DNA of 64,000 bases, from positions 195,522 to 259,521 of the forward strand of contig CAVZGV010000004.1 of NCBI GenBank assembly GCA_963774955.1, given 5' to 3'. Each line of letters opens with the position of its first letter. Position 1 is the first letter of the stretch. The notes beneath the pieces were generated by a model. The model searched no databases. It worked only from the letters and a program-made list of their open reading frames with translations, and was not told the origin of the DNA. Made by a program: the position numbers and the translations under genes. Below, piece after piece: positions 9,532-31,576 of this stretch. Origin of the DNA: Candidatus Falkowbacteria bacterium (lineage in GTDB: Bacteria > Patescibacteriota > Patescibacteriia > CAIXNZ01).

Positions 9532-9679
9532 TTTTGGCTAATTTTAAAGTAATACTTCTATAAAAAGACCGATAATTCGGTCTTTTTTATTTTTTGATTA
9601 GTATACTAGTCAACTTTTAGCTAAAATCCTTGACGAAAGTTTTAAATATGCTATAATGTGATTATTATAATGATTAAAT

Positions 9680-11353
9680 ATGATTATGATTAAGGTTAAA
9701 TTAGATCAATTGGCAGAGAAGTTAAACAAATCAATAACAGATATTGCCAAAGAAACTAAGTTAAATCGCAATACCATAACTGCTTTATGCCATAATAAAG
9801 TGGATGGGATTAAATTTGCCACCTTAGAGCGCATTTGCAATGCTTATAAAGTCGGAATCGGAGAACTACTTGAAATAGAAAATATCAATATTAATAAGAT
9901 AAAAAAGGAAGCAATCTACAAACAAGAAGGCGCGGCCGTGCCCCTTACTTGCTGGCCTTGGTTATTGGCCTCAACCAGAATCAATAATCCATTTCTGGAT
10001 TATGGCTACGGCAATATTAATTTTTACAGCCTTAAAGAGTATATAGAGGTCTATTGGGATAAAGATGCCTTGAGAAAAACTGCCATAAATGTTTATGAAA
10101 AATATGCTGTTAAGAAAAATTTAGATATATTCTTTAATAATTATCTAAAGGCCGCTGATAAATTGAAAGAAATGTATCTGAAGGCTGATCGGCAAAATGT
10201 TTTAGATTTTAATAATAATCAGCTCGTGGATTATTTTAAGCAATTGATGGAAGCATACGCAGGTATGTGGGATAATGCGCTGTTTGTCGATGCTTTTGAT
10301 CCAGGGTATGATCAGGAAAAAATCAATGAACTTGTAAACAAATACGGTTTTAACAAAGAAGACGTCCAGACGCTGACAACATCTGAAATCATGTCTTTCA
10401 ACAGTGAGCAGCTTTATGAGCTTTTGAAAATAGTCAAAACAATAAGAGATAAAAAGATATCAGGCCAGGTTCTGCAGCAGTTTATCGATAAAAATGATGC
10501 AATTAAAAAATATATCTGGAATTATGATTATTACTGTTCAAATTATGCGCAAACAAGCCATATAAATCGGGTAAATTTAGCTCAAGAAATTAGAAAATAC
10601 CTCAAAAACGAAAAGTTATTCCAGGAGGAATTTTATAAACTTGATAATTTTACCGAGATTCAAAAGGCTAATAAGTTAAAAGTACTTAAAAAATACAAAA
10701 TTACTGAAAATCCTTTATATTTCTTTAGTCTGCTGACATATTGGCGGGAAAATCGCAAACAGGTTAATTTAATGGGTTTTCATGTCTTTGATTTAATCCT
10801 GCAATCGTTGGAAGAAAAAACCGGCATTGAAATGAAATATTTAAAATATCTGGTTGATGACGAAATTCTTCATGTCTTAAAGGGCAGTATAGATCTGGAA
10901 ACGTTGAAGAAACGCAGGGAAACTGGTTGCTTTTTCAGCTTTAAAAACGGTGACTATCAGCTTTTTATCGGCAAGCAGGCTGATTCTTTAAAAAATGAGC
11001 TGGAAAATCAGTTAAATACCCAGGCTGATTTAAAGATAATTCCTGGACAGGTGGCCTGTCAGGGCTATGCCAAAGGCATTGCCAAAATCATATTAAATGT
11101 TAACGATTTTAATAAACTAAAGCCGGGAGAAATATTAGTAACCGGCATGACCAGACCGGAATTCATACCATTAATGAGAATAGCAGCTGCAATCGTGACT
11201 AATGAAGGCGGCATTACCTGCCATGCGGCCATTGTTAGCCGGGAACTGGGCAAACCCTGCATCATTGGCACGGGCAATGCCACCCAACTAATTAGAGATG
11301 GTGATTTAATTGAAGTCCGGGCAAATCATGGTACCGTTAGAATCTTGAGTTAG
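9680..11353 (+). CDS. XRE-type HTH fused to a helical domain and a C-terminal PEP-utilizing-enzyme swivel (phosphohistidine) domain. Paralog 1 of the array.
   Basis: N-terminal 'ITDIAKETKLNRNTITALCHNKVDGIKFATLERICNAYKVGIGELL' (HTH_XRE). C-terminal 'GEILVTGMTRPEFIPLMRIAAAIVTNEGGITCHAAIVSRELGKPCIIGT' (PF00391-like, catalytic His). Confidence 0.7.
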   Translation: MIMIKVKLDQLAEKLNKSITDIAKETKLNRNTITALCHNKVDGIKFATLERICNAYKVGIGELLEIENININKIKKEAIYKQEGAAVPLTCWPWLLASTRINNPFLDYGYGNINFYSLKEYIEVYWDKDALRKTAINVYEKYAVKKNLDIFFNNYLKAADKLKEMYLKADRQNVLDFNNNQLVDYFKQLMEAYAGMWDNALFVDAFDPGYDQEKINELVNKYGFNKEDVQTLTTSEIMSFNSEQLYELLKIVKTIRDKKISGQVLQQFIDKNDAIKKYIWNYDYYCSNYAQTSHINRVNLAQEIRKYLKNEKLFQEEFYKLDNFTEIQKANKLKVLKKYKITENPLYFFSLLTYWRENRKQVNLMGFHVFDLILQSLEEKTGIEMKYLKYLVDDEILHVLKGSIDLETLKKRRETGCFFSFKNGDYQLFIGKQADSLKNELENQLNTQADLKIIPGQVACQGYAKGIAKIILNVNDFNKLKPGEILVTGMTRPEFIPLMRIAAAIVTNEGGITCHAAIVSRELGKPCIIGTGNATQLIRDGDLIEVRANHGTVRILS

Positions 11354-11474
11354 TATATAGGATTGAATAAAAGGTCGCATTAGCGGCTTTTTATTATTGA
11401 CAAAATTTATTAATTATGCTAAGATGGTATTAATTAATACCTTTAAAGTATAGTAATAATAATCCTCAATTATT

Positions 11475-12032
11475 ATGCTGGAAAACTTATTCTCAAGCCA
11501 AGTAATTTTTAAGCTTTTGAGCCTGATGTTTAGCCAGGAAGAACAGGAATTTTCAACTCCGGAACTGGTTAAATTAACCGGTAAAAAACAGACCAATATC
11601 ATGCGTGAGCTGGAAAAATTGGCTAATTGGGACATGGTGATTAAAACTAAAAAGGGCAAGCAGAATTTTTATCGGCTTAACACCAAATACGCTTTTTATG
11701 AGCAGTTAAAAAGTCTGTTTTTAAGATATTTAGGTGCCAACAAAAAGTTTATGGTTTACACGGAGGAAGCCAATGCCGCTTTGCTCACGCTTAATTATTT
11801 TTCTATTGCCTATGCCAATCCCCTGGCTGTTAATTTGGGCATTTTGAGTCAGATGCCAGATTTGCTTTCATATTACAAAAATAATTATGTGCGTTTTTAT
11901 TTTGAAAAAGACGTGGTAGAAAAAATTACTGCTGAATCATTAAAGAAGCTGAGAACTGATGCCAGCTTTGTTAAAGATATTATTTACCAGCAATCAATTG
12001 CCAAAGGCGAAGAAGCTTTGAGTTTTATTTAA
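11475..12032 (+). CDS. Winged-helix transcription-regulator-like protein
   Basis: 'STPELVKLTGKKQTNIMRELEKLANWDMVIKTKKGKQNFYRL' winged HTH. 185 aa. Confidence 0.4.
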   Translation: MLENLFSSQVIFKLLSLMFSQEEQEFSTPELVKLTGKKQTNIMRELEKLANWDMVIKTKKGKQNFYRLNTKYAFYEQLKSLFLRYLGANKKFMVYTEEANAALLTLNYFSIAYANPLAVNLGILSQMPDLLSYYKNNYVRFYFEKDVVEKITAESLKKLRTDASFVKDIIYQQSIAKGEEALSFI

Positions 12033-12035
12033 CAA

Positions 12036-13208
12036 ATGAAGGCCAACGATTATAAAGTTACAGCCGCAGAAGCTTTAAAGCTGCTGGATCAATTTACAGA
12101 TATTATTAATACCCAGATTTCCTTAAACTGCATCGCTATTTTAGATTTATTTAATGAGCCGTACAGCAATTATTTAAAAACCTATTTACAGAAGCAGATC
12201 AAAGAGACTGATTTACGCCTGAATTATGTACTGGAAAAATTACTAGCGCCTGAGCAGCTGACCTGGACCCAGCTTTACCGCCGTGAAATGATCAAGCTGG
12301 TTTTAAAGTATAAAGCAGAAAAGATTGACTATAAGCCTGAACTGCAAACCATTCATGCCAATTGGAAATGGCTGAACTTCAATTACCGCGGACCGGAATA
12401 TACTCTGGAATATTTTGCACAGATATTTAATGAAATGATAAATAAGGCTTTGTCTGAGCTGGAAATAGAGCTGGATTTTATTGATAATAATCAGACTTAC
12501 GTCCTCAAAGAAAAAAACAAAATTTTTAAAGAGCTGAAAATCGACCAGCAACACCAGGATTACATCAATGCTTTGAGCATCCTCTCGTATTTGAAAGTCT
12601 ATCGTAAAGATACGGCTTTTTTATTGGTTTTTCTAACTCTTAAAATCATGGAACAGTTTGCGGACGGTTTGAAAAAGGAAAACTGGCTTTATTTGACTCA
12701 GTCTGAGGCGCGCGATCTGATCAAGGGGCAGTTAAATGTTACTAAAGCTCAGCTGATTGAAAGGGAAAAGGAATGCGCTTACCTCGGTCAGGAAAAGATA
12801 TTAATGGTAGGTCACGACGCCGCCAAATTCGTGGCTGATAATACCATAGCGGATAAATTTAGCGAAGCCGGTGGTTTAAAACTCTTAGAAGGAACCACTG
12901 CTTGTTTGGGTAAAACCGGTGACTGGGTGTACGGCAAAGTAAAAATTATTAATCAGCCAGAAGATATGAGTAAAATGGAATACGGGGACATTTTGGTCTC
13001 TTATGCGACCATTCCTGATATTTTGCCAGCCATGAAAAAAGCCGCAGCCATTGTCACTGATCAGGGTGGTATTACTTCACATGCAGCCATTGTTTCCCGC
13101 GAATTAAATATTCCCTGCGTGATCGGCACCAAATATGCCACTAAAGTCTTTAAAGACGGAGACAAGGTGATTGTCTGTCCGCGTCATGGGCATATTAGAT
13201 TTCAATAA
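12036..13208 (+). CDS. Swivel-domain paralog 2 (helical N-terminal domain plus PEP-utilizing mobile domain)
   Basis: C-terminal 'DILVSYATIPDILPAMKKAAAIVTDQGGITSHAAIVSRELNIPCVIGT'. The 'W-x-W-L-N-F-N-Y-x-G-P' motif is shared with the other paralogs. Confidence 0.7.
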   Translation: MKANDYKVTAAEALKLLDQFTDIINTQISLNCIAILDLFNEPYSNYLKTYLQKQIKETDLRLNYVLEKLLAPEQLTWTQLYRREMIKLVLKYKAEKIDYKPELQTIHANWKWLNFNYRGPEYTLEYFAQIFNEMINKALSELEIELDFIDNNQTYVLKEKNKIFKELKIDQQHQDYINALSILSYLKVYRKDTAFLLVFLTLKIMEQFADGLKKENWLYLTQSEARDLIKGQLNVTKAQLIEREKECAYLGQEKILMVGHDAAKFVADNTIADKFSEAGGLKLLEGTTACLGKTGDWVYGKVKIINQPEDMSKMEYGDILVSYATIPDILPAMKKAAAIVTDQGGITSHAAIVSRELNIPCVIGTKYATKVFKDGDKVIVCPRHGHIRFQ

Positions 13209-13259
13209 TTAATAGTTAGAAGAATATAAATTTAAAATAAATCAGTAAAAATTAATCAT

Positions 13260-14793
13260 ATGGCTTTAAGACAACAATTTGACCGCAAAAATATTTTAAT
13301 CTTCCCTTGGTATATTGCGGATTTGACCTTAACTAAGGATATTGCCGCCATTGCTGACGGCCAAAAAGTTAAGGATTGTTTGGTTATTATTGAAAATTAT
13401 TATTTTAAATATGCCATGGATGTGGACTCGGTCAAAGAGACTGCCCTGGCGATTTTAAATAAATTGGTCAGTGATCCTAAATATTTTGCTTTGGCTAAGA
13501 AGATGATTTATGATTTTGGCGAAGACTTGCTGGCCTTTGGTGACAAAATTAAGGATATTGATTTAGCTCAGGCCAGTAACGAAGATTTATTGAATATTTA
13601 TGCTGAATATACGGAACATTTGAAAGCCATGCGCACCTGGGGCTGGATCCCGGCCATTATTGATGGCACGACTGAAAGCTTTTTGACCGATACGATTATG
13701 GCTAAATTCGGCGCCTATTTAAAAATAATTAATCAGGAGGATAAAATTGCAGCTTTTTACAGCTTATTAAGCTCCAGTGAAAAAATGAGCGAAGTCCAGA
13801 CAGAGGAATTGGCCAGGCTGGATTTACTTTTTAAAATTTTAAAGGATAAGCAAACTGCGTCAAATACTTGATCTGATCAAGTCCAATAATTATCAAGAAA
13901 TAAAAACGCAATTTCCTAAAATATTATAAATTATTAGCTAAACATTTACAGGATTTTGCCTGGCTGCCTTTTGCTTATATTGGCCCGGTCATGTCCTGGG
14001 AATATTTATTTAAATTAATTAATGATAATTTAAACAGCGGGGATATTAAGGCTCAGAAAGAAAAAATCATCAATCATTACAAATCAATTAAAAAAGACAA
14101 AGCCGCTTTGATTAAGAAATTAAAATTGCCGGCTGATTTGCAGTATATTTTTCAGATTTCCACTGAATTCATGTTTATCAAAGATTACCGCAAGGGCATT
14201 TATCAGAAATCTTATGTTTATATGGATCCGGTCATGGCTGAAATCGCCAAAGACTTAAGTCTGAACTTTAAAGCAGGTCAAATTTTTAATTTATGAAGAT
14301 GTTGCTGATGCTTTATTGAATAATAAGGCGGATTTTTATCGTCAGACTGTGCCGAACAACGCCAAAAAAAATGTTGTTATTATGCGACTGACGGTGCAAT
14401 TAAAGTTTATCAGGGGGAAGAATGTGAACAAATGATTAGCTAAATATCTTAAGAGCAACACCGCAAGTTGACGTCAGCCACATTAAGGAATTAAAAGGCA
14501 TGACTGCTTACCCGGGTAAAGTTACTGGTACTGCCAAGATTGTCTTATTGGAAAAAGATGTCAGCAAAGTCCAGGCCGGTGATATTTTGGTTTCTTCGGC
14601 GACTAATCCTGATTTGATTGCGGCCATGAAAAGAGCTGCTGCCTTTGTGACTGATACGGGCGGTATAACTTGTCATGCGGCCATTGTCTCTCGTGAGTTG
14701 AAAAAGCCCTGTATTATTGGCACTCAGCATGCGACTAAGGTCATTAAGGATGGTGATCATGCTGGAAGTTGACGCTGACCATGGCATTGTCAA
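13260..14793 (+). pseudogene. Decayed swivel-domain paralog, broken into three frames (ORFs 13260-13871, 13991-14296 and 14500-14772)
   Basis: Family motifs appear in consecutive frames, including 'DFAWLPFAYIGPVMSWEY' upstream of the 13991 ORF with no start codon. The swivel domain ends 'KDGDHAGS*', while the +1 frame continues 'MLEVDADHGIVKILNK*'. This indicates a 1-nt indel near 14746. Confidence 0.55.
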
Positions 14794-14827
14794 AATTTTA
14801 AATAAATAATTAATTTAAGTAAAATTT

Positions 14828-15432
14828 ATGTCTATCTTAGAAATAAAAAATTTACCCGAGCAATATGAGGCGCTTTGGCAGCGCTGCGCGCCTTTATTAC
14901 AAAAAGGACGGCCAGATGACGAGGGCCATGCCAAAGATACAGTGGAATTTGTTTTAAATTATCAGGGCGATTTGCCGTTTGATCCGGAAGTCATTATTCC
15001 CGTGGCTATGATGCATGATATCGGCCATTCCGCGTTATTGCCAGAGCATTTAAAATACGTACTGGCGGCGTTAAAATAAAAAATGGCAAATTGGTTCACA
15101 TGCTGGCCGGCGCGAAAATTGCTCATGATTTATTGGTTGACAATTAAGCTATGATCACGGCCAATATCAAGGAAATCGTGGATATTATCAGTATTCATGA
15201 CTGGGATCAATTGGACATTCCTGAGGCAAAGACGGTTTATGATACTGATAATAAAAAGTTCTTTCATGATATTGATGCATTAGACCGCTTTAATCAGGAG
15301 CGTTTGGAATATTATAAAAATTCATTTCAGCAGGGTGAACTGCAGAAATTGATAACCAAGCAGTTGGATGTTTTCTTTTATCCGGAATTTAAAAAAATCG
15401 CCGAGGCGAGATTCAAAATTTTGAAGTTTTAA
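14828..15432 (+). pseudogene. HD-domain phosphohydrolase, interrupted by in-frame stops and a frameshift
   Basis: 'MMHDIGHS' HD motif in ORF 14828-15079. After the TAA, the same frame continues 'KNGKLVHMLAGAKIAHDLLVDN*'. A third piece (15151-15432) lies in another frame. Confidence 0.4.
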
Positions 15433-15436
15433 ATTT

Positions 15437-16880
15437 ATGATTAGCGATGTCTTAAAAAAATACAGCCAAGGGCGGAACTTAATGAAGCAAGAAGGCGCCT
15501 TCTCTTTATTAGCATCTTATGGTTTTTGCGCGCTCGGTTTATTTGGACCAAAGTGGTATGACCTTTACCGCAATGATTATAATTTTTTCTTGGGCATATT
15601 TGATCAGACGAATGGCCTTTTTGTTTTTGATTGGGGTAAATATAAGGAAACCACCGACATTGAATATCGTCTGATGATTAAAGAAGGTAAAGGTAGTTAT
15701 TTAAGAGTTTTACCTTTATTTGAGAAGCATTCTGCCGAGATGTTTAAACTCTATCAGGCCAATCATCCAGCAGTTATTGCTAAAATGGATATTGAAAAAT
15801 TAAGGCAACATATTATTAATTCAAATGAATTAACTTCAATTATATTAAGAGACACGCTGTTTAGCGAGTCTTTTGATGAAGATATGGCCAAAGTCTATTA
15901 TTTGCAGGCAGGCGGCCAGGAAGAATATTTCCAGGAATTTTTTGCCATGACCTCTGCGTTGACGTTTGATTCATTTAAATTTAGGAGAGATAAGATTATC
16001 TTAAATGATGCAAAACAAAAAAAGATTGATTATTATAAGTTGCAATACATATATACTGATCACTTTGCTGGCAAACTTTTAATTGAGGTTGAAAAAATGG
16101 TGAATAATTTGAATTTTAATATACTTTTGGAAGAGATAAAAATTAATGATCAACAGGTAGAGAATAATAAAGAAAGAAGGGAAAAATACATCCAAGCTTT
16201 ACCCGACAGTTTGAAAGCATTAGCTCATTTTATGGAAGTGACCATGCGCATCAGAGATGAAAGGCAAGATTGTTTTGCCCAAGGTATGACCATTGCATAT
16301 AACTGCGCTTATGAATACTTTAAGCGGCTAGGTTTTAATCCTAAAGATTGTATTTATTCTTTTTATACTGACTATTTGAATAATATTTTGGAAAACCCCG
16401 AATATTCACAACTGATTGAGAACAGAAAAAAGGGCTGTGCCGTGATTGCAGAAGCAGGCCAGCCAGTAAAATATACCTGGGAATTCAAGGAATATCAGCA
16501 AGTTACGCCAGGAATTTTTAGATATTGTTGAAGCTTCAGTTAAAAAAGAAAATTCCCTAGAGCAGATTAAAGGCCAGGTTGCTAATCCAGGCAAGATAAA
16601 GGGCATGGTTAAAATAGTTTTAAGCAGTACTGATTTTGCCAAATTTAATAAGGGTGATATTTTAGTCGCCTCTATGACCAGGCCAGAATATGTGCCAGTA
16701 ATGAAAAAGGCTAAAGCAATTATCACTGATGAAGGCGGTATCACCTGCCATGCCGCCATTGTCTCCCGGGAATTAAATATACCCTGCATAATTGGCACTA
16801 AAAATGCGACTAGAATTTTGCAAGATGGGGATGAAGTGGAAGTGGATGCCAATAATGGCACCATTAAGATAATTAAATAA
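15437..16880 (+). pseudogene. Swivel-domain paralog with a single frameshift at about 16490-16509. It could instead be an authentic frameshift or a sequencing error.
   Basis: ORF 15437-16531 carries the N-terminal family motifs ('RIRDERQD', 'RKKGCAVIAEAGQ'). Frame 0 is open from 16470 and reads 'RQEFLDIVEASVKKENSLEQIKGQVANPGKIKGMVKIVL', which continues into ORF 16605-16880, a complete swivel domain. Confidence 0.55.
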
Positions 16881-16886
16881 TATTTT

Positions 16887-18395
16887 ATGACTGAGACTAA
16901 AAATAATGTAACGAAATTAGACTGGCAGGAATACATCCGCAGCGGCGCCAATTATCATCTGATGCTGCCTTATGTTGACGGCATCACCCTTGGCGTTAAG
17001 GCAATATTCGGCCAGTCAATCAGCCATTTCATGGCCTTTTTTGAAGGCACGACATTATACTGGTACTATGTTGCCCAGGAATTAGCTGCTTTGGGCAGAG
17101 TTATTGTCGCCAAATTATTGGAGTCTGAGTTTAGAACTAATTTTTTTGCAGTCTGGAATAATTATAAAAATGAACTGGACAATTTGATTAATAAATTTCA
17201 GCTGGAACAAATTAAAAAATTATCTAACCAGGAACTGGCTGACCTTTATCGCGGCTATTTTAAGCAATTGACTGAGTGGTGCGGCTATAGCATGTCCATA
17301 GATGCCACGGATGAATCTTTAATGGCGGATATCCCCACCAGAATTAAAGCTATCATGAAAAATGTCTTGGCTGACGGTTATACAGAAAAGGAATATATCA
17401 GAGCGTATAATATTTTAACCCAGCCGGAAAAATTTTCCTACATGAACGAAGAACGGCTGGCATTATTACAGCTGGCTAAAGATTTACAGTCCGACACAAT
17501 TAAAAAGGACGATTTGGCCTATCAGCAGCAAGTTCAAGCCGTTTTGGATAAATATTGGTGGACTGATATGGGCTGGGCTAAAGGCCAACCAAAAACTAAA
17601 AGCGATGTGGCTAAAAGCTTGGAAGAAATTGTTAAGGCAGGTCAGGATCTTGACGAGGAAATTAAAAAGATTAAAGCTTTACCCGCCAAAATAAAAGCTG
17701 CTAAAGCTGAACTGGAAAAAACCTACCAGTTTAGTCAGGATCAAGATTTAATCCAATTACTGGATTTATTTGACCAGTTGGTTGAATATCATGATTTAAG
17801 GAAAGAAACGCAGATGAAAACTAATTACTGGCACTATCTGGTTTTTGCGGAGATTGCTCAAAGAAAAATGATTGAGCCGCAGCTTTTAGACTGGTGTAAT
17901 TTGGCTGAACTGGAAAGTTTATTAATCGGGAATGAATTTGATCGGGAGGAAATGAGCCGCCGCTCAGTTAATTACCTAAGATTAAATCTTGAGGGAGTTT
18001 TGAGCCTTTATGCCGGCGAAGAAGCCAAAGCCAGGCATGATGAGGTTTTAGGCTTGCAGTTGGAGCAGGTGCATGATTTGCAGGGTATTAGCGCTTCTGC
18101 CGGCAAAGTGGCCGGCCGCGCCCTGGTTGCCCTAAGCATTGAAGCAGCCAAAGATATTAAGCCGGGTGAAATTTTAGTGACTGGCATGACCACCCCGGAA
18201 TTTGTGCCGGCCATGAAGAAAGCCGCGGCCATTGTTACTGATGAAGGCGGGATTACCTGCCATGCGGCCATAATTTCACGAGAGCTGGGACTTCCCTGTG
18301 TGGTCGGCACCAAATTCGCCACCCGCCTGATTAAAACAGGTGATCTGATTGAAGTGGCAGCCAATCACGGTATTGTTAGATTATTAAATAAATAA
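16887..18395 (+). CDS. Swivel-domain paralog 5
   Basis: C-terminal 'GEILVTGMTTPEFVPAMKKAAAIVTDEGGITCHAAIISRELGLPCVVGT'. Begins 7 bp after the previous gene. Confidence 0.7.
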   Translation: MTETKNNVTKLDWQEYIRSGANYHLMLPYVDGITLGVKAIFGQSISHFMAFFEGTTLYWYYVAQELAALGRVIVAKLLESEFRTNFFAVWNNYKNELDNLINKFQLEQIKKLSNQELADLYRGYFKQLTEWCGYSMSIDATDESLMADIPTRIKAIMKNVLADGYTEKEYIRAYNILTQPEKFSYMNEERLALLQLAKDLQSDTIKKDDLAYQQQVQAVLDKYWWTDMGWAKGQPKTKSDVAKSLEEIVKAGQDLDEEIKKIKALPAKIKAAKAELEKTYQFSQDQDLIQLLDLFDQLVEYHDLRKETQMKTNYWHYLVFAEIAQRKMIEPQLLDWCNLAELESLLIGNEFDREEMSRRSVNYLRLNLEGVLSLYAGEEAKARHDEVLGLQLEQVHDLQGISASAGKVAGRALVALSIEAAKDIKPGEILVTGMTTPEFVPAMKKAAAIVTDEGGITCHAAIISRELGLPCVVGTKFATRLIKTGDLIEVAANHGIVRLLNK

Positions 18396-18400
18396 ATCAT

Positions 18401-19729: not shown

Positions 19730-19739
19730 GTACATAAGT

Positions 19740-21251
19740 ATGAATCCATTAGAGCGGATTAAACAATTTAAACCAGGCGATTGGTATCCGGAAAATACTC
19801 CCTCCCGGCCTTTAATGGTATCAGGTATTGCCAGAGGCTTTACTACCAATATTCTTAAAAACTATAAGCTGGTGCTCTGTTATTTTAGTCAGGGAAAAGT
19901 GTCCTGGATTACTTTGATTAAAGACCAGCAGGAAATAGGAGAACTGATTTGGCAAAAGCAAATGCAGGATAATAAGTATTGGCTTAACCAATTTGCGACT
20001 TATGAGCAGATTAGAAATAATCTGGCTCAAAATTTTGACTTACTTAAAAATAAGTATTTAAGAGAGTTAAGTGATAATCAGCTTGTTGAGGACATAAATA
20101 ATTACGTGACTCAGCAGTGGGCCACCAGAAAATATGATAGTTTGGTAGATCCTTATCTGTTTTATGCGGAAAATAAACTCCCTGAGTTATTGAGGCAATT
20201 TGTCCGGGCCAAGGCGGAAATTGCCTTAAAGCCCCAGGAAGCAATGGAAATTATTACCAAACCAGAAGTACCTTTCTTTTTAAACAAATACTTTTTAGAT
20301 TTGATCGATATTGCCAGGTCAATCAAAAGTGATCATGAGTTAGCAGCTAAAATTTTAGCTGAAGAAATCAAGGAAGCTGATTTACCCCAAGGTTTAATTG
20401 AGCGAATTAAAAAGCATGCAGACAAATATTGCTGGATTAAAGTGGAAAGTTTTTATGGTGCCAATGAGTATACTTTCAATCATATTATAAACGAATTGCA
20501 AAAATTGTTAGCGGCTGATTTAGAGGCAGAAGAAAATCAACATAAAGCCTGGCAGCATAATAAAAAAATAAGGCAGGAATTTTTGATTAAGCACAATTTT
20601 AGTGATGAGATTCGGGCGTTTGCGGATTTGGCGCCTGTATTTGCCAAATGGCAGGATTTAAGAAAGATTAATTCCGTTATGACCACCTATTTGCACGCCA
20701 AATATCTGCAGGAATTGAGTAGGCGGCTAGGTTTGACTGAAGATGAATTGGCTTACCATGATTTTCAGGAGCTAACCCAAATATTACAGGGTAAAATCGG
20801 GCAGGCTGAATTACAGAAAAGAAAAGAAGGCTGTCTGTTTGTCTTTCAGAATGACGGTTTTGAAATGTTTTATAAAGAAGATGTGCAGGATTTAATCAAT
20901 GACATTGTAAATCCGGATTTAAAGGGGATTACTGAATTCAGCGGCATGGTTGCCTCGACCGGCCAGACCCAGGGAACGGTTAAAATTGTCATTACAGTTG
21001 AGGATATGCAGAAAATGAACAAAGGCGATATCCTGGTTTCTACCATGACCAGGCCGGAACATTTACCGGCCATGAAAAAGGCTAGCGCCATAATTACCGA
21101 TGAAGGCGGCATTACCTGTCACGCGGCCATAATTTCCAGAGAATTAAACATTCCCTGCGTCATTGGCACTAAAATCGCCACTCATGTTTTAAAAGATGGC
21201 GATCAAGTAGAAGTTGACGCCAATCAAGGTATAGTTAAAATAATTAAATAA
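19740..21251 (+). CDS. Swivel-domain paralog 7
   Basis: 'WQDLRKIN' motif. C-terminal 'GDILVSTMTRPEHLPAMKKASAIITDEGGITCHAAIISRELNIPCVIGT'. Confidence 0.7.
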   Translation: MNPLERIKQFKPGDWYPENTPSRPLMVSGIARGFTTNILKNYKLVLCYFSQGKVSWITLIKDQQEIGELIWQKQMQDNKYWLNQFATYEQIRNNLAQNFDLLKNKYLRELSDNQLVEDINNYVTQQWATRKYDSLVDPYLFYAENKLPELLRQFVRAKAEIALKPQEAMEIITKPEVPFFLNKYFLDLIDIARSIKSDHELAAKILAEEIKEADLPQGLIERIKKHADKYCWIKVESFYGANEYTFNHIINELQKLLAADLEAEENQHKAWQHNKKIRQEFLIKHNFSDEIRAFADLAPVFAKWQDLRKINSVMTTYLHAKYLQELSRRLGLTEDELAYHDFQELTQILQGKIGQAELQKRKEGCLFVFQNDGFEMFYKEDVQDLINDIVNPDLKGITEFSGMVASTGQTQGTVKIVITVEDMQKMNKGDILVSTMTRPEHLPAMKKASAIITDEGGITCHAAIISRELNIPCVIGTKIATHVLKDGDQVEVDANQGIVKIIK

Positions 21252-21260
21252 ATTAGAAAT

Positions 21261-22715
21261 ATGTTAACATTTTCAGATTGGCAAAATATTTTAAACGAAG
21301 ATTGGTATATCCAGGGCTTTAATGCCGCTCCGATTTTTCTTAATACCGCAGCATATAGTGGTTTGATTATGAAAGACAAGGTGGGGTTTGGCTACACTCA
21401 TTTTTTGTTTCAATACCAAAAGAAATATGCGGAAATGGGTTACTTAAATGATGATTTTATGCGTCTATGGCAGATTATCAAGGAAAAATTGGCGGCTGAC
21501 TCCGATTATTTATCTAAAGTTAAAAAACAGTATGAAACTGAATTGGAGCAATATGAGCCTATTCATAAAAGATTGGAGCAGGAAGATTTAACAAAACTGG
21601 ATGATTCAGAAATCATTAAATTATTAAAAAGCTCTTGCCGGAATATGACTGATGCGGTTGGCATTGCGCATTTGATCGAGCCGATCGGCATTTTTTTGGA
21701 GCAGGAATTTAAAGCTGATTTAAAAAATTTTGTTCAGGAGGAAAAAGAATATAATCGCATTTTCGGCATATTGTCCACGCCGACCCAAAGTTCATTTTTA
21801 GCGCTTGAAGAACAGGAATTAAAAAACATTGCGGCTTTGAAATCTAATCAACAGGCTGCCGCACTGGCTGAACATGCCCGAAAGTATTTTTGGCTGAATA
21901 ACAGTTTTGCCGGGCCGCAGAACATTGATCCGGCGCAATTCAGTAAAAGATTGGCAGCCTTTAAAATGCAAAAAGTTGAAAATCCCTCAGTTTCAGCGGC
22001 TGAACAAAAGAGTGGCTTAATTAAGACTTTAAGGTTAGATCAGGCAATCATTAAAAAGATTGGAATTATTGATTACTGCACTATTTGGCAGGATGAACGC
22101 AAAATCAATGTGCTTAAAGCAATCGGATATTTAGGCAAAGTATTAGCTGAACTCGGACGACGTTTGAACATTGATCCTGTTAATCTTTATTTTTTGGCAA
22201 CTACTGATTTTTTAAATATTAAATCCATAGCCGAGTTAAAATCCTTAGAACCTGAATTGCTGGCTCGACAAGCTGGTTCATTCTTCCTGATTAACGGTCT
22301 AAACCAGGAAGAAGTCGCCAGGGGAAGTGATTATGAGAAATTAATCGATTATAAAAAGGAATTGGAAGTTACGCAAAGCTTTAAAGGTACTGATTTGCAC
22401 GGTTCTATTGCCAATGGCGGCACAGCGATCGGCATTGTAAAAGTTTGCAAAAACTTAAGCCAAATTCACAAAGTTCAGCCAGGAGATATTTTAGTTGCTT
22501 CCATGACGCGTCCCGAATATATTCAGGCAATTAAAAAGGCTGCGGCCATTATAACTGATGAGGGCGGCATTACCTGTCATGCAGCCATTGTGTCCCGGGA
22601 ATTAAATATCCCGGCCGTTATTGGTACCAAAATCGCCACCAAAGTTTTAAAAGACGGCATGAAAGTCGAAGTCAAAGCCAATCACGGCTTGGTCAGAATT
22701 TTAGAAAATATTTAA
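21261..22715 (+). CDS. Swivel-domain paralog 8
   Basis: 'WQDERKIN' motif. C-terminal 'GDILVASMTRPEYIQAIKKAAAIITDEGGITCHAAIVSRELNIPAVIGT'. Confidence 0.7.
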   Translation: MLTFSDWQNILNEDWYIQGFNAAPIFLNTAAYSGLIMKDKVGFGYTHFLFQYQKKYAEMGYLNDDFMRLWQIIKEKLAADSDYLSKVKKQYETELEQYEPIHKRLEQEDLTKLDDSEIIKLLKSSCRNMTDAVGIAHLIEPIGIFLEQEFKADLKNFVQEEKEYNRIFGILSTPTQSSFLALEEQELKNIAALKSNQQAAALAEHARKYFWLNNSFAGPQNIDPAQFSKRLAAFKMQKVENPSVSAAEQKSGLIKTLRLDQAIIKKIGIIDYCTIWQDERKINVLKAIGYLGKVLAELGRRLNIDPVNLYFLATTDFLNIKSIAELKSLEPELLARQAGSFFLINGLNQEEVARGSDYEKLIDYKKELEVTQSFKGTDLHGSIANGGTAIGIVKVCKNLSQIHKVQPGDILVASMTRPEYIQAIKKAAAIITDEGGITCHAAIVSRELNIPAVIGTKIATKVLKDGMKVEVKANHGLVRILENI

Positions 22716-22731
22716 ATAGTATATTAATATT

Positions 22732-24198
22732 ATGTTGACTCTCGATCAAGTTAAAAATATCAAATGGTATCGCCAGTCAGGGGCGGGGATTCCATTGAGC
22801 ATTGGCATGCCATTTTTGGGCATTGCCATCATGAATAAAGTTTCCGGTTTTTATTACCCCAATGATTTGGGTACTTTTTTGAAAACTGGCAAGGGTTTTA
22901 CTTTTTATCATTACTTTGATTATTTTTTGACCCTGGAACAGGTCAAGAAAATTTTTAAAACATTGGAACAAGATCCTGAGCATTTTAGCAAACTTAAGGG
23001 GAAATTTTATCAGGCCGGACCTAAAATGGAAGCCGAGGGTTTAGCGATTCTCGATAAGTCAGTATTTTCTCACGAGTTCCAGCAGGGTTATCAAAAGACA
23101 TATGATTACACTATGGATTTTTGGGGTAATTCACTTTACGTTGACCTGATGGATCCTTTTGAGATTCAGGTCATTGATTTTATTTTTGGTGACATCAAAA
23201 AGAAAATAAACAAAGCAGAATTAAATATTTTAATGAGTCCGGATGAATTGTCCAATTACCAGAAGCAGCAAGCTGAGCTTTTGGAACTGCTTAAAGTCGC
23301 CCAGGCAAAAGGGATTGATAGCAGCGAGGTCTTAACAGGTGCAAAAGAATTATCCCGTAGATATTACTGGCTCAAAAATGATTATGAAAAAGTGGAATTT
23401 CTTGATGCCGATTATTTTATGAATGAAATCAAGAAATTGTTGGTAGATCCCAAGGAAGCTGATAATATCAGCAGAAATCTGCAGAAAAGTCGTGAGTTAC
23501 AGATTGAGAAGCAGACAATTATTAAAAAATATAATTTTTCGGAGATATTGGTTAATCATCTGAATTTTTTCAACTGGGTGACGATCTTGCGAGATGACCG
23601 CAAAAAATATAACCAGATCAGCAATTATATTCTGATTAAAACCATTGAAAAAATTTCTGAGGAAGCAGGAATTGATCTTGAGCTTTTAAAATATGCCATG
23701 CCCAATGAAATAATTAAAATAATTAATAAGGATGCTAAAATCGCGACTGAACTGGAGCAAAGAGCCAATTTGGGCTTAATCGTGTTTGCCGATACCATTG
23801 AAGTGCTGGAAGTTTACTCTGGTAAAATCGCCAAAGAATATTTTGACATCATTGAAAGTACTATTGCTGCCTCGGAAATTAAAGGTACGACTGCTTCACC
23901 CGGTAAAGTTATCGGCACAGCCAAAATTATTTTAAGTCAGCATGATTTTGATAAAATGAAGCCAGGCGATATTATTGTCGCTTCCATGACCAGGCCGGAA
24001 TATGTGCCGATTATGAAAATTGCTCTGGCGATTGTAACTGATGAAGGAGGGATTACTTCGCACGCAGCTATTGTTTCGCGGGAATTAAATATACCCTGCA
24101 TTACTGGAACCCAGGTAGCAACGAGGTCTTTACAAGACGGAGATTTAATTGATGTTAATGCCGATCATGGTTTAGTAAAAATAGTTAAGAAAGCGTAG
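22732..24198 (+). CDS. Swivel-domain paralog 9
   Basis: 'LRDDRKKY' motif. C-terminal 'GDIIVASMTRPEYVPIMKIALAIVTDEGGITSHAAIVSRELNIPCITGT'. Confidence 0.7.
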   Translation: MLTLDQVKNIKWYRQSGAGIPLSIGMPFLGIAIMNKVSGFYYPNDLGTFLKTGKGFTFYHYFDYFLTLEQVKKIFKTLEQDPEHFSKLKGKFYQAGPKMEAEGLAILDKSVFSHEFQQGYQKTYDYTMDFWGNSLYVDLMDPFEIQVIDFIFGDIKKKINKAELNILMSPDELSNYQKQQAELLELLKVAQAKGIDSSEVLTGAKELSRRYYWLKNDYEKVEFLDADYFMNEIKKLLVDPKEADNISRNLQKSRELQIEKQTIIKKYNFSEILVNHLNFFNWVTILRDDRKKYNQISNYILIKTIEKISEEAGIDLELLKYAMPNEIIKIINKDAKIATELEQRANLGLIVFADTIEVLEVYSGKIAKEYFDIIESTIAASEIKGTTASPGKVIGTAKIILSQHDFDKMKPGDIIVASMTRPEYVPIMKIALAIVTDEGGITSHAAIVSRELNIPCITGTQVATRSLQDGDLIDVNADHGLVKIVKKA

Positions 24199-24264
24199 CT
24201 TTTGGAACTTTTCAATTAATTAGGTATATTTAGGTTAGTATTTTTTATTATATTTTCAAATTTT

Positions 24265-25170
24265 ATGTTTAAAAACAGCTTGGAGCTTGGTCCTGATTCC
24301 GTCAATAAATTAACTAAGAAAAAAGAACGCTACGAAAATGCCAGTTCAGTAATTGAGCTTAATTTTTTTCGCCATGGCGACAAGGAAAGCGATAAAAGTA
24401 AGTCTGATTTGGAGATTGAACTGACCAAGGCGGGCGGCAAAGAAGCAGCGGCCAAAAGTAAAACTAAAAGCATTGAGCAGTCTTTGGCTTTGGGCAGCGC
24501 CAGAAACAGGGCTCAACAGACCGCCGGTTTGGTCATGGCCGGGCGCTCTGAGCGCATTACCGGCGAGGAAAGCTTAGCCGAACTCAAAATAAAACTTGAT
24601 CAAGAATTGAAAGTCGGCTCTAAAATCGGCATTGATAAGCGCTTGGATTTTATCATGGACATGAACAGACCCTATGACCAGGAGCTGATGGTGGCTTTTA
24701 AAAAAGGTGAATTTTTACCATTTTTATTTAATGATAGCGATCAACTAGCTAAAGCAGAGGACCTAAAAGAGGGCATGACTTATTCAGGCACGGCCAGTGA
24801 AATTGCCAAGATCGTAGCCAAATATCTAAAAATTGCGCCGCGCTGGGACCAATTGGTTGCTGATGACAAAAAGAAATACTCCAAAATTATGGAAAGATAT
24901 CTGGGCAGCCATCAGGGTGTGGTTGAAACGTTTTTAGCCAAAGTGATTGAAAAGACTAAAGGTGTAGAAGAAAGAAACAACTTTCAGGCAGTCTTAAATA
25001 ATCAGGGCTTTGGCTTTGTCGAAGGCTATCAGGTACAGATCATCAATAAAGCAGGGGAAAAACCGAAAGTATATATTTCGTATAAAAAAGAAAAAGACGG
25101 CCAAACAGTTTACCAATTTAACCAGGAAATAGAGTCACGAATTTTAGAGCAAATTATCAAAGGCAAATAA
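24265..25170 (+). CDS. Histidine-phosphatase superfamily protein (PGAM/SixA-like)
   Basis: 'FFRHGDKES' (RHG catalytic motif), 'LTKAGGKEAAA', 'GSARNRAQQTA' and later 'GSHQG' (second His). Confidence 0.5.
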   Translation: MFKNSLELGPDSVNKLTKKKERYENASSVIELNFFRHGDKESDKSKSDLEIELTKAGGKEAAAKSKTKSIEQSLALGSARNRAQQTAGLVMAGRSERITGEESLAELKIKLDQELKVGSKIGIDKRLDFIMDMNRPYDQELMVAFKKGEFLPFLFNDSDQLAKAEDLKEGMTYSGTASEIAKIVAKYLKIAPRWDQLVADDKKKYSKIMERYLGSHQGVVETFLAKVIEKTKGVEERNNFQAVLNNQGFGFVEGYQVQIINKAGEKPKVYISYKKEKDGQTVYQFNQEIESRILEQIIKGK

Positions 25171-25219
25171 GCAAAAGAAGAAGGCCAGGGAGAAATCCCT
25201 GGTCTTTGGTAAAAGCATT

Positions 25220-25771
25220 TTAGTCCGAGGCAATTACCGCCCTGATATTGCCCTCATCGTCCTGGATGAAGTCAACATACTCAAGCGGTTGCAGACTTCT
25301 GCCGGTGGCATCGCAGGCCATGGCGCAAAGGGAAATGATCGGGTCATGGCCGATAGCCAGACCATAGCCATCATCCGGCATTTGAGCGAACATTTTGATC
25401 AGACCGGATATGGCCCAGTCGCGGATGGGCTTGCGCTCCTCTTCCGTTTCAAAGGCAATCATGAAGGTGGCTAAACCATCATGGCCTTGGGCCGCAGCAT
25501 TTTTCCAGGCCGGGGTGGACAGAGTTTTGAACATTTCCTCATTGCCCAGTTCGGCCACGGCTTCATGCACGCGAATCTCGTAGCCGGTCCGCTGTTTGTG
25601 GCAGTGGCTGGCCAGCGCTGCCAATAGGGTTTGAGCGGTCCTGGCCCAGTCACTGTAAAACAGATCAGTGACATTGGTCAGGTCCACCTGTTTCCCGGCC
25701 TGCTGCAATCCAGCAGCACTGATGTTTTGGCCATTCTTGTCTCCATGCCGCATGTACCTGATTTTCTTCAT
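25220..25771 (-). CDS. Histidine-phosphatase superfamily protein (PGAM/SixA-like). The gene is compositionally G+C-rich.
   Basis: 'IRYMRHGDKNG', 'ISAAGLQQAG', 'SDWARTAQT', 'AIGHDPI'. It is markedly G+C-richer than its neighbours. Confidence 0.55.
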   Translation of the reverse strand: MKKIRYMRHGDKNGQNISAAGLQQAGKQVDLTNVTDLFYSDWARTAQTLLAALASHCHKQRTGYEIRVHEAVAELGNEEMFKTLSTPAWKNAAAQGHDGLATFMIAFETEEERKPIRDWAISGLIKMFAQMPDDGYGLAIGHDPIISLCAMACDATGRSLQPLEYVDFIQDDEGNIRAVIASD

Positions 25772-25889
25772 TTTTCCTCCGTATTTTGTCTTGTTTTTTG
25801 GCTAACCTCTGCGTGATTACTAATATAGTAGCTTATCATATTTTGAAAATAAAGTCAAGAGTAAATCACCTTTATTTTTAGGCTGATTT

Positions 25890-26567
25890 TTGCTATATTT
25901 AAGCTATTATAAGATACTAATTAAGCTCCTAGTTAAAATGATTATGTTAGACAAAGAATCAGGGTTAAACAGAGAAAAGGCGCCTGAATTTAAAAAAGTT
26001 GTCCAGGAATATAAGACATTATCGATTGCTTATGAATTGGCAATCAAGCCTTGCTTTATCTTTGGTGAAATATCAGATGCCTTGGATATTGCCCAGGTTT
26101 ATCAGATTATAAATTTGCAGTTTAAAGATAAAACAACTGGTAAAATCATAAAAATTGCTGACTTGGTTCCGGCTGGCTTTAAACTGGGACTGGTTAAGGG
26201 GAGCGGAGCAAGATTTATCAGGCAGAAGAAATTAATAACCGTGCCTAGCCTCGGCGAACCGGGTAATCAATTTGTTTTGTTGCATGAGATTGGTCATGCT
26301 CATCAAAAAAGAAAAGAGGAAGATAATTTTCATAAGCTAAATACCAAAGACGGCGAATTGGATATTTTAAATCATCTTTCAGATCAGGAATTTAGAAAAG
26401 AATGGCCGTTTGAAGAACAGGCGGATAAATTTGCTGCCGAAAAATTATTAGAAATACGCAGGCAAGGTCTTGACCTGGAGCCGGAAAAGCCCGGTCAGAT
26501 ATTAGAAGATTACATGAAAGAAAGATTAGACCGCTTAAAACATCTTATGTCACTTTGTGAAAAATAA
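25890..26567 (+). CDS. Putative HExxH zinc-metallopeptidase-like protein (ImmA/IrrE-like motif)
   Basis: 'FVLLHEIGHAHQKRKEED'. The exact start is uncertain because there are several in-frame ATGs. Confidence 0.35.
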   Translation: MLYLSYYKILIKLLVKMIMLDKESGLNREKAPEFKKVVQEYKTLSIAYELAIKPCFIFGEISDALDIAQVYQIINLQFKDKTTGKIIKIADLVPAGFKLGLVKGSGARFIRQKKLITVPSLGEPGNQFVLLHEIGHAHQKRKEEDNFHKLNTKDGELDILNHLSDQEFRKEWPFEEQADKFAAEKLLEIRRQGLDLEPEKPGQILEDYMKERLDRLKHLMSLCEK

Positions 26568-26583
26568 TTAAAATTATAAATTT

Positions 26584-27540
26584 ATGTCTGAATTAATCAA
26601 AATTTTCACAGAACTTAATAAAAACAGCACTCATTTAGCCGGAGGTAAAGGCGCGTCTTTGGGCGAGATGACCCAGGCAGGGATTCCGGTACCGCCTGGT
26701 TTTGTGGTTACGGCCAAAACCTTTGACCGTTTTCTGGCAGAAACTGATTTGACCCAGGAAGTAGAAGCCCAATTGGATAAGGTTAATTATGATGATGTAG
26801 CCTCTGTAGAAGAAGCTTCCAAGACAATTGCCGATTTGATCCATGATGCCAAGTTTCCGGAAGATTTGGAAATTGAAATTATGGCGGAATTTAAAAAATT
26901 AGATGTGGAATTTGTGGCAGTCCGTTCGTCAGCTACGGCCGAAGATTCTTCAGTGGCTTCCTGGGCAGGTGAGCTGGAAAGTTATCTGAATACTGATAAA
27001 AATCATTTATTGGGCAATGTTAAAAGATGTTGGGCTTCCTTATTTACCCCGCGAGCTATTGTTTATCGCATGGAAAAGGGTATGCGCGAAACAAAAGTAT
27101 CTGTTGCCGTGGTAATTCAGGCCATGGTGCAGTCAGATATTTCCGGTATTTGCTTTACAGTCCATCCGGTAACCAAAGATAAGAATCAGCTGATCATTGA
27201 GGCGGGATATGGTTTGGGTGAGGCTATTGTTTCCGGCCAGGTTACGCCTGATTCTTATGTTATCCATAAGGATGATCTGGAAATTATAGATATTAATATC
27301 GCCGACCAGGAAAGAAAAATTATGCGCAAACCAGAAGGCGGTAATCACTGGGTTGTGATTGATGCCGCAGACAGGGCTAAGCAAAAATTAGCTGGCGAGC
27401 AGATTATTGAATTAACTAAAATTTGTCTCAACATTGAAAAGCATTATGGTTTCCCCTGTGATATTGAATGGGTCATGACCAAAAAGTTAAATGAGTGGGA
27501 GTTCTTCATCGTGCAGTCACGGCCGATCACTACTTTATAA
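26584..27540 (+). CDS. Stand-alone PPDK_N-type ATP-grasp nucleotide-binding domain (the N-terminal domain of PEP synthase / pyruvate,water dikinase / rifampin phosphotransferase). It has no swivel or PEP-binding domains.
   Basis: 'LAGGKGASLGEMTQAGIPVPPGFVVTAKTF', 'VAVRSSATAEDSSVASWAGELESYLN', 'VAVVIQAMVQSDISGICFTVHP', 'LIIEAGYGLGEAIVSGQVTPDSYV'. It ends at 318 aa, followed by a terminator. Confidence 0.75.
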   Translation: MSELIKIFTELNKNSTHLAGGKGASLGEMTQAGIPVPPGFVVTAKTFDRFLAETDLTQEVEAQLDKVNYDDVASVEEASKTIADLIHDAKFPEDLEIEIMAEFKKLDVEFVAVRSSATAEDSSVASWAGELESYLNTDKNHLLGNVKRCWASLFTPRAIVYRMEKGMRETKVSVAVVIQAMVQSDISGICFTVHPVTKDKNQLIIEAGYGLGEAIVSGQVTPDSYVIHKDDLEIIDINIADQERKIMRKPEGGNHWVVIDAADRAKQKLAGEQIIELTKICLNIEKHYGFPCDIEWVMTKKLNEWEFFIVQSRPITTL

Positions 27541-27580
27541 AAAAAGCCCCGGACAAGAAATTGTCCGGGGCTTTTTATTT
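27541..27580. terminator. Bidirectional intrinsic terminator
   Basis: 'aaaaaagCCCCGGACAAgaaaTTGTCCGGGGctttttatttt' between two convergent genes. Confidence 0.6.
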
Positions 27581-31348: not shown

Positions 31349-31576
31349 ATGTTTATGACAAGCCGCAACTAATATGTCATGGTGAGCTTTATCGATTCAG
31401 GAGATTTTAAGGGACAAGCCCTAAAATCAAAGCATTCAAAACTTACATTTCTATTATAGCACACCCTGAAAAAATAGTCAATATTTTTGACGAATGTGAA
31501 ATGAGTAATTTAAGCAATATGGCTAATATTCGTAGAAATAACTTCCTATTTATATTCGCATTATTAGTCATAAGTC

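Follow-up and report, generated by a model that had tools for sequence, protein, structure and literature searches.

What is the function of a cluster in which nine paralogous proteins with a phosphohistidine swivel domain are encoded beside a single ATP-grasp protein? The question is raised by positions 9680-27540 of a 64,000-nucleotide stretch of a Candidatus Falkowbacteria genome (contig CAVZGV010000004.1, positions 195,522 to 259,521; hereafter the window). Throughout, H stands for a paralog with a helical N-terminal domain (N-domain) and a C-terminal swivel His domain, and GR for the ATP-grasp (PPDK_N) protein. The answer we favor, with moderate confidence, is a split dikinase of the rifampin phosphotransferase (RPH) type built as one hub with many spokes, where the single GR charges many H proteins in trans and each H protein has a substrate of its own.

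The comparison that speaks most directly to this answer is with related loci. Homologs of p5, one of the window paralogs, come from candidate phyla radiation bacteria (CPR; Parcubacteria and others) and from archaea of the DPANN superphylum (Woesearchaeota, Nanoarchaeota). YebC homologs (84-89% identity to Candidatus Parcubacteria, 81% to Buchananbacteria) put the host of the window in the Parcubacteria group of CPR bacteria, close to Buchananbacteria. In 83 related loci, extending up to 10 kb to each side of the matched gene, custom profiles were used to detect N-domains (HN), swivel domains (SW) and GR. The loci were chosen by swivel-motif similarity, and their frequencies describe this sample rather than all genomes; taxon labels are the titles of public records, some of them unreliable (third-party-annotation bins called 'Gammaproteobacteria' and 'Methanosarcinales' carry DPANN- or CPR-like arrays). 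A first-pass annotation, made from the letters of the window, had pointed to CPR genomes as the place to look for this neighborhood, and it recurs in CPR and DPANN loci alike. Arrays reach nine intact paralogs, more if fragments are counted, and each has at most one ATP-grasp. Examples with one stand-alone GR each are:

L002, marine archaeon: five H genes and three HAD genes
L004, Woesearchaeota GCA_016192995: at least six H genes
L007, Nealsonbacteria: eight intact H genes and fragments
L009, Woesearchaeota: nine H genes
L012: nine H genes
L018, Iainarchaeum: five to six H genes
L036: five H genes

Exactly one GR is present in 12 of the 17 loci with at least five modules and two GRs in none of them; many of the rest end at a contig edge. 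In other genomes the same components are joined in single chains, again with one GR each:

L042 (965-12250), Woesearchaeota metagenome-assembled genome: 3761 amino acids (aa), one GR and nine swivel domains, the largest
L043, Nanoarchaeota: 2029 aa, GR and four modules
L049: 1997 aa, GR and four modules
L082: 1410 aa, GR and three modules
L022 (Moraniibacteria), L023 and L035: GR and two modules each
P0125: GR and three modules
P0127: four modules, with GR internal

Ordinary RPH-like GR-HN-SW chains of 835-859 aa occur in L037, L045 and L062, and in L045, L082 and L035 an H-fused GR is followed by H genes that have none. The large arrays and natural polyproteins thus bear out the pairing of one ATP-grasp with many swivel subunits that had been proposed from the window. 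Of all the evidence at hand, it is the GR-(module)n fusions that speak most strongly for several H modules being served by one ATP-grasp domain.

The window cluster itself is bounded by the terminator of a GT4 gene (9562-9587) and by a strong bidirectional terminator (27541-27576), and all of its genes lie on the + strand except HP2. Of its nine H genes, six are intact (p1 and p5-p9), one is split by a nonsense codon (p2) and two are frameshifted (p3 and p4); the other genes are a dead HD gene, HP1, HP2, an ImmA/IrrE-like peptidase gene and the GR gene:

9630-9657, + strand: promoter-like site before p1, TTGACG-16-TATAAT with a TG extension (consensus match only)
9680-11353, + strand: p1, intact, 557 aa; XRE-type helix-turn-helix (HTH_26, residues 7-67), helical RPH-like N-domain and swivel His domain; motif WRENRK
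11475-13208, + strand: p2, fused to a winged helix-turn-helix (HTH); in-frame TAA at 12030-12032 leaves ORFs of 185 and 390 aa; swivel His intact
13260-14814, + strand: p3, decayed, in at least three frames; His motif TDTGGITCH still legible (tblastn, profile)
14828-15432, + strand: HD-domain phosphohydrolase pseudogene, frameshifted; the intact form has ~205 aa in L007, L022 and L045
15437-16880, + strand: p4, decayed by one frameshift near 16500; second-site motif RDERQ (K to Q), swivel His motif intact
16887-18395, + strand: p5, intact, 502 aa, the copy modeled here; catalytic His459, second site H302-D303-x-R305-K306
18401-19729, + strand: p6, intact, 442 aa; motif WRDERK
19740-21251, + strand: p7, intact, 503 aa; motif WQDLRK
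21261-22715, + strand: p8, intact, 484 aa; motif WQDERK
22732-24198, + strand: p9, intact, 488 aa; motif LRDDRK
24265-25170, + strand: HP1, histidine-phosphatase superfamily, 301 aa; RHG motif, second Arg, second His
25220-25771, - strand: HP2, short and histidine-phosphatase-like; MRHGDK...GHD, own terminator
25890-26567, + strand: ImmA/IrrE (M78)-like zinc peptidase; HEIGH motif, gene 16 bp ahead of GR
26584-27540, + strand: GR, stand-alone ATP-grasp (PPDK_N), 318 aa; GGK22GA, VR114SSATAED and the remaining nucleotide-binding core
27541-27576, no strand assigned: bidirectional intrinsic terminator between GR and the convergent PBP1A gene; 16-bp stem with 8 G-C pairs, the natural 3' end of GR

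Nine paralogs on one strand were correctly recognized at first pass. The count of seven intact genes falls to six, because 12036-13208 is the distal part of one gene with 11475-12032, in the same frame with a TAA between them; the concatenated translation of p2 aligns end to end (1-574) with single winged-HTH ORFs of 616-621 aa in L041 and L055. Spacers of 5-20 bp had been reported for the whole array, and spacing is indeed tight from p4 to p9 (5-16 bp) and nowhere else; 121 bp separate p1 from the next gene, with a hairpin and a promoter-like site inside. Promoter- and terminator-like sites, all of them consensus matches only, suggest three transcription units: p1 alone, p2 through HP1, and the peptidase gene with GR.

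Is GR a complete protein? It matches the full PPDK_N model (E 2.2e-99) and no other domain in Pfam, in agreement with its original description as a stand-alone ATP-grasp protein lacking a swivel or PEP-binding domain. Its best NCBIfam match, PEP synthase (E 6e-102), reaches only profile positions 4-337 of 798, as might be the case if GR were the 5' fragment of a ppsA gene truncated by the assembly and the paralogs were unrelated swivel proteins. We give this explanation virtually no credence. GR is not a truncated ppsA because its ORF ends at a stop codon with the 16-bp-stem terminator directly after it, followed in contiguous sequence by a convergent gene for a 965-aa PBP1A, and stand-alone GR ORFs lie beside H genes in 15 other loci (mostly 310-350 aa, range 250-383). 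Neither a C-terminal ppsA remnant after GR, nor a PEP-binding domain, nor any GR or swivel copy beyond those listed was found in the window. Truncation, named at first pass as a finding that could undo the whole proposal, is refuted by this natural 3' end.

The swivel domains are equally recognizable. PF00391 (PEP-utilizers) matches the C-terminal ~72-100 aa of seven ORFs (9680-11353, 12036-13208, 16887-18395, 18401-19729, 19740-21251, 21261-22715 and 22732-24198) with E values of 1.5e-26 to 6.5e-24 in Pfam, and all seven carry T-D/N-E/Q-G-G-I/L-T-C/S-H-A-A-I-V/I-S-R-E. The portion of this motif up to the His is legible in the two decayed copies as well as in the seven full ones, and with Pfam it confirms a C-terminal mobile domain with a catalytic His in every paralog. 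By tblastn and profile, p3 survives as pieces at 13260-13871, 13904-14293 and 14440-14769 with its C-terminal end at 14760-14814, and p4 as 15425-16528 and 16470-16877 around a single frameshift. The HD pseudogene consists of two small ORFs (83 and 93 aa) that are halves of one frameshifted gene. All four disruptions (p2, p3, p4 and HD) fall within 11.4-16.9 kb; assembly error is possible in principle, but they are clustered within 5.5 kb and the other long ORFs of the window are intact.

Do the nine paralogs represent a recent expansion? Within the window they are 27-30% identical overall and 18-21% identical in the N-domain, for which neither Pfam nor NCBIfam has a model. The likeness far exceeds chance, and the paralogy is genuine and divergent. 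By BLAST they are closer to proteins elsewhere (41-48%) than to their neighbors (27-36%): the best homologs are a Nealsonbacteria array member for p8 (48%) and proteins of L016 for p1 (45%), L019 for p6 (42%) and L001 for p5 (41%). Of 108 array members, 102 have their best BLAST match outside their own locus, and the swivel-coding DNA ends of the paralogs are only 63-73% identical. These last values and the best matches in other genomes rule out recent tandem duplication or gene conversion. By sequence comparison, then, the paralogs are ancient, long-separated subfamilies and not recent duplicates, and because these subfamilies are old and separately conserved, different substrates for different paralogs are most likely.

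The decay and the divergence together bear on another explanation, that the cluster is a decaying remnant, or a fast-turnover family of the conflict type that like RPH inactivates antibiotics or toxins, and does little in this genome at present. Three paralogs of nine are broken, as is the HD gene, the nearest characterized single-chain relative is an antibiotic-resistance enzyme, and RPH-like genes appear in CPR resistome surveys (PMC8651080, a paper that only counts 'rph' hits). We nevertheless think this quite improbable, since six copies are intact with both catalytic motifs and 41-48% conservation extends across CPR phyla, unlike a recent birth-and-death expansion. A tblastn search with the N-domain found no match in phage and plasmid collections, so that at this sensitivity nothing points to an origin in mobile elements. 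The paralogs score 51-82 bits against the NCBIfam rifamycin-phosphotransferase model NF041857 (cut-off 999) and so are not RPH members, and nothing indicates rifamycin as a substrate. A known defense system was also considered and rejected, as PADLOC gives no match for H, GR or the phosphatases.

What, then, is the N-domain? With 73 family sequences as input, AlphaFold2 gave a confident model of p5 (pLDDT 93.5, pTM 0.90), which was compared with solved structures by Foldseek. Listeria rifampin phosphotransferase (RPH-Lm; E 8.3e-17, TMq 0.57, ~580 columns) is the only one to match both the N-domain and the swivel domain, all other matches being to a swivel domain of ~100-130 residues. Likeness to the RPH substrate-binding domain, an early conjecture from domain order, is thus seen beyond the swivel domain. 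The relation emerged only with the structure model and with a full-length family profile, which aligns with RPH-Lm residues 613-878 (E 8e-33). This profile alignment places p5 H302-D303-L-R305-K306 opposite R666-E667-Y-P-K670 of RPH-Lm, and in the other paralogs the second site reads R/Q-D/E-x-R-K, the best-conserved N-domain motif of the family. Of the two N-domain motifs reported at first pass, W-R/Q-D-E-R-K is real, with its R-K, and so the Lys of the second site, invariant in the seven window copies and the 73-sequence family alignment, and W-x-x-x-F-x-G-P is looser than it was written, being (K/R)-Y-x-W followed by aromatic-x-G. In RPH-Lm, R666A and E667A abolish the second phosphotransfer, to rifampin, and K670 belongs to the same hydrogen-bond network (Stogios et al., PMC4844700). 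The retention of both catalytic centers of an RPH-type second half-reaction argues for the H proteins being active phosphotransferases rather than decoys.

Split dikinases have precedents. HpeHI of Rhodococcus, CreHI of Corynebacterium and the phenylphosphate synthase PpsAB of Thauera are active two-component dikinases, in which the ATP-grasp subunit presents ATP and the swivel His is pyrophosphorylated and, once the gamma-phosphate has been shed, hands the beta-phosphate on to the substrate; the two subunits form a transient complex, and in HpeHI the conserved swivel His is essential (PMC12167813). These enzymes share with the window a separate ATP-grasp subunit and an RPH-type helical substrate domain with a C-terminal swivel His, set in a T/S-x-x-G-G-x-x-x-H motif near the C-terminus, and the mechanism proposed for the window (ATP to AMP + Pi + X-P through phospho-His) is also theirs. 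They differ in being 1:1 pairs from aromatic-catabolism operons of free-living bacteria, whereas the window has nine H per GR and no aromatic-catabolism genes, and the hosts of such clusters are CPR bacteria and DPANN archaea. HpeH, CreH and PpsA are ~45% identical to one another. The N-domain of the window is not detectably related to theirs by the NCBIfam PRK08296 models (600-aa proteins with a C-terminal swivel), which match the swivel only; the sequences themselves were not compared directly. The statement that no described system has this layout appears right for the one-to-many arrays and polyproteins and fails for the split as such. Literature on CPR, DPANN and swivel or dikinase terms yielded no paper on one-to-many arrays or polyproteins, which, as coverage was incomplete, is absence of evidence only; it is these arrays and multi-module polyproteins that appear new relative to two-component dikinases.

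The remaining relatives place the cluster between known families. RPH-Lm (PDB 5FBS/5FBT/5FBU, 5HV1) has the same domain order, and its R666-E667...K670 site corresponds to R/H/Q-D/E-x-R-K; it is a single 865-aa chain with its own ATP-grasp, whereas the window chains are separate. PEP synthase (PpsA) and PPDK are closest in sequence for both GR and the swivel domain (PDB 8a8e; swivel E ~1e-35 to 1e-39 in NCBIfam), including the T-x-H regulatory-Thr position: the residue two before the His is Thr in the window H proteins, as in PEP synthase, and Met in HpeH and RPH. In these enzymes a TIM-barrel PEP/pyruvate domain occupies the place taken here by a helical RPH-type domain on separate polypeptides, and Pfam gives no PEP-utilizers_C match for the cluster proteins or for the eight swivel-only relatives scanned. 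The prodiginine ligases PigC, RedH and HapC are RPH-like three-domain single chains that activate an aldehyde for condensation. Their NCBIfam matches to p7 and p8 extend past the swivel by ~100 aa on its upstream side and take in the C-terminal portion of the middle domain, and window scores are 52-85 bits against cut-offs of 1300-1350.

How might such a system work? In the split-dikinase reading, ATP would be bound by the single ATP-grasp protein, and its beta-gamma pyrophosphoryl or beta-phosphoryl group would pass to the swivel His of a docked H protein (p1, p5-p9 and possibly p2). The charged swivel domain would then swing back to its own helical N-domain, where the R/H/Q-D/E-x-R-K site would hand the phosphate to a hydroxyl or similar nucleophile of a substrate held in a paralog-specific pocket, for a net reaction of ATP + X to AMP + Pi + X-P. 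Phosphohydrolases of the array (His_Phos_1 and the decayed HD protein here, HAD in archaea) probably dephosphorylate the products or reset the phospho-His carriers, and the HTH-fused p1 and p2 probably make transcription of the array responsive to ligand or phosphorylation state. What points to ATP-dependent phosphorylation of small-molecule hydroxyls through phospho-His is the conservation of both phosphotransfer sites; from the arrangement as a whole we infer charging in trans by GR, one substrate per paralog and these roles of the phosphatases and HTH copies.

Companion genes lend some context to this scheme. ORFs other than H and GR, within and next to the arrays, were clustered without prior selection and then scanned with Pfam. 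Members of the histidine-phosphatase superfamily occur in the window (two), L060, L050 (two), L035, L014 and L002, with R36, H37 and R82 invariant; homologs of HP1 lie within the arrays of L060, L050 and L035, with more distant ones in L014 and L002, and HP2, which has no Pfam match above threshold, has a homolog in L050. HAD hydrolases recur mostly in archaeal loci, and HD phosphohydrolases are intact in three arrays (L007:6141-6758, Pfam HD 4.4e-8; L022:4298-4915; L045:7792-8442). The recurrence of phosphohydrolases of three unrelated superfamilies in the same position suggests that phosphate removal, from products or carriers, is part of the system. A hexapeptide-repeat (LbH) protein stands beside GR in five archaeal loci, TrmB regulators recur beside arrays (L012, L021, L048, L066), and GT4 genes are found in L030 and, twice, in L051; the window is itself flanked by a TrmB-family regulator (30584-31348, - strand) and a GT4 glycosyltransferase (8365-9531, + strand). 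Pta, LbH, HAD and DUF5674 genes, which go with related arrays, were sought in the window and are absent from it; the search turned up only the HD pseudogene. As to substrates, the GT4, TrmB, LbH and HAD neighbors hint at sugars, PTA_PTB (a phosphate acyltransferase) at carboxylates and acyl-phosphates, and the likeness to RPH at xenobiotics, and none of these is more than a hint.

Several observations weigh against a single hub serving all of these proteins. GR lies outside the predicted transcription unit of the array, 2.4 kb downstream and past an opposite-strand gene, where it is paired with the M78-like peptidase. No GR is present in the examined stretch of 15 of the 30 loci with at least three H modules, many of which end at a contig edge, and some stand-alone GRs are distant from that of the window (124-280 bits). 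Part of the paralog set seems dispensable here, given the broken paralogs and HD gene, and not every copy need be active, because the R666 equivalent varies among R, Q and H, and in the alignment p2 is without the acidic second-site residue. The sequences are just 15-21% identical to RPH, and a profile of the N-domain alone gave no meaningful match to PDB sequences. Finally, PTA_PTB genes occur in the arrays of L005 (1899-2888), L006 (7494-8504), L009 (17848-18837) and L013 (3-647), with E values of 5e-88 and 7e-95 for the two that were scored, and in protein P0124, which has three H modules and no GR, a PTA_PTB domain is fused in frame between the modules (residues 512-814, E 4e-70). This hints at another phosphoryl source or sink, through a link to acyl-phosphates.

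Taken further, the separate transcription unit, the GR-less loci and the PTA_PTB genes could mean that the H proteins are independent of GR, using another donor or acceptor (acyl-phosphate or PEP) or acting as X-P:Y phosphotransferases while GR serves something else. Such chemistry has been seen, in that HpeH alone moves phosphate from 4-phosphoacetophenone to acetovanillone (PMC12167813). We judge this independence unlikely. At least nine independent polyproteins carry a single GR together with several H modules, no array has a second GR, and contig ends truncate many of the GR-less loci. The GR of the window sides with array-associated GRs and not with PpsA, scoring 355-443 bits against most H-fused GRs and the closest stand-alone ones versus 217-263 bits against the canonical PpsA ATP-grasp. 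Nor does the window encode a Pta, and no scanned array protein, from the window or the related loci, has a PEP-binding domain.

Could the H proteins, with the same chemistry, instead be sensors and regulators rather than metabolic enzymes? HTH domains of three unrelated types are fused to the family: XRE in p1, winged HTH in p2, and a MerR/excisionase-type HTH_17 at the N-terminus of many p5 homologs, the closest ones included. An N-terminal extension of ~70 aa is present in roughly one in eight of the best N-domain matches, and many solitary H genes are long forms, probably HTH-fused. Just upstream of the p1 promoter-like site, 9594-9613 form a near-perfect 20-bp palindrome, TTGATTAGTATACTAGTCAA; at p2 the second hexamer of the promoter-like site is overlapped by a 38-bp imperfect palindrome (11415-11452). 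Either could be an operator for the HTH-fused copies, although the regions are AT-rich, the matches are at consensus level only and the palindromes may have arisen by chance. These features could be read as regulation of the kind known from PRD domains of the phosphotransferase system (PTS), in which GR keeps the His charged, a ligand drains the phosphate and the phosphorylation state controls DNA binding by the HTH copies; an ImmA/IrrE-like peptidase, the usual partner of XRE repressors, also adjoins GR. We find this improbable, because DNA-binding domains are absent from five of the six intact window copies (p1 is the exception) and from most of the family, HTH-less copies keep the catalytic second site, and the phosphatases, PTA_PTB and other companion enzymes suggest metabolite turnover. 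With three HTH types and candidate operators at promoters, the HTH copies themselves fit regulation better than the idea, raised at first pass, that an HTH-fused copy acts on DNA as its substrate, for which we find no support.

The peptidase merits a separate remark. Its match to Peptidase_M78 (E 2.7e-3) is below the cut-off, PADLOC matches it weakly to capP (3.3e-6), and it was not found in the other arrays among the 83 loci. It is apparently co-transcribed with GR, and with the XRE-type HTH on p1 it makes up the usual protease-repressor pairing; CapP, which it weakly resembles, is the partner of an XRE-type repressor in cyclic-oligonucleotide-based antiphage signaling systems (CBASS).

If one GR does charge many H proteins, the arrays might together amount to something broader, an ATP-driven phosphoryl network resembling the PTS in CPR and DPANN organisms, which have no PTS, with GR as the analog of Enzyme I for up to about ten carriers. 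We consider this doubtful but conceivable. Each carrier would phosphorylate, and so trap or activate, a different scavenged metabolite, and the HTH-fused carriers would report its availability to transcription. Phosphatases, and in some lineages the phosphate acyltransferase, would close the cycles, and polyproteins of two to nine modules would be the fused form. Analogy is all that is meant: both arrangements have one charging enzyme, many substrate-specific acceptors, His-phosphate carriers and some DNA-binding fusions, and the swivel domain of Enzyme I is homologous to that of the window, but the PTS takes its phosphate from PEP rather than from ATP through an ATP-grasp, and HPr, EII and membrane components have no counterpart here.

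Under the split-dikinase reading, the recently recognized two-component dikinases, known as 1:1 pairs in aromatic catabolism, would also come in a one-to-many design and as giant modular polyproteins. Some 18 kb, where the organism's proteins are recorded on a contig of 455 kb, is a heavy investment for a reduced genome, and the system is thus probably central to how these symbionts handle outside molecules. The N-domain family is large and unnamed: among 1.84 billion representatives at 50% identity, the N-domain-only profile matches 4119 at E <= 1e-3 and 2626 at E <= 1e-10, multi-module proteins included. Its paralogs would be natural specificity variants on one scaffold, and as soluble proteins with two defined catalytic sites they should be readily testable.

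There is also a consequence for annotation. H-only proteins are publicly named 'phosphoenolpyruvate synthase/pyruvate phosphate dikinase' (JGI names; for example P0026, P0065 and P0077, which have no ATP-grasp or PEP-binding domain) or 'PEP-utilizing enzyme'. Such names are misleading because there is no PEP/pyruvate-binding TIM barrel anywhere in the cluster, and they can yield false calls of gluconeogenesis or PEP synthase in metabolic reconstructions of CPR and DPANN organisms.

Some array members are shorter (339-357 aa), with the swivel behind a ~260-aa N-domain that neither our N-domain profile nor Pfam matches and that may be a second class of substrate domain:

L082, 10112-11149: shorter array member
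L050, 3940-4974: shorter array member
L054, 9479-10534: shorter array member
L018, 8614-9666, - strand: shorter array member
L078, 9431-10447: shorter array member
L048, 11385-12455: shorter array member

Elsewhere in the window, 31400-38600 has few long ORFs and a somewhat higher G+C content (0.43-0.47), and only RuvC (35505-36020, - strand) and a PAF-acetylhydrolase-like ORF (36936-38087) are recognizable there. An Rfam search of the window found nothing, and even at E <= 0.01 gave no tRNA at 37315-37396, where ARAGORN predicts a tRNA-Leu(CAG) inside the PAF-acetylhydrolase-like ORF.

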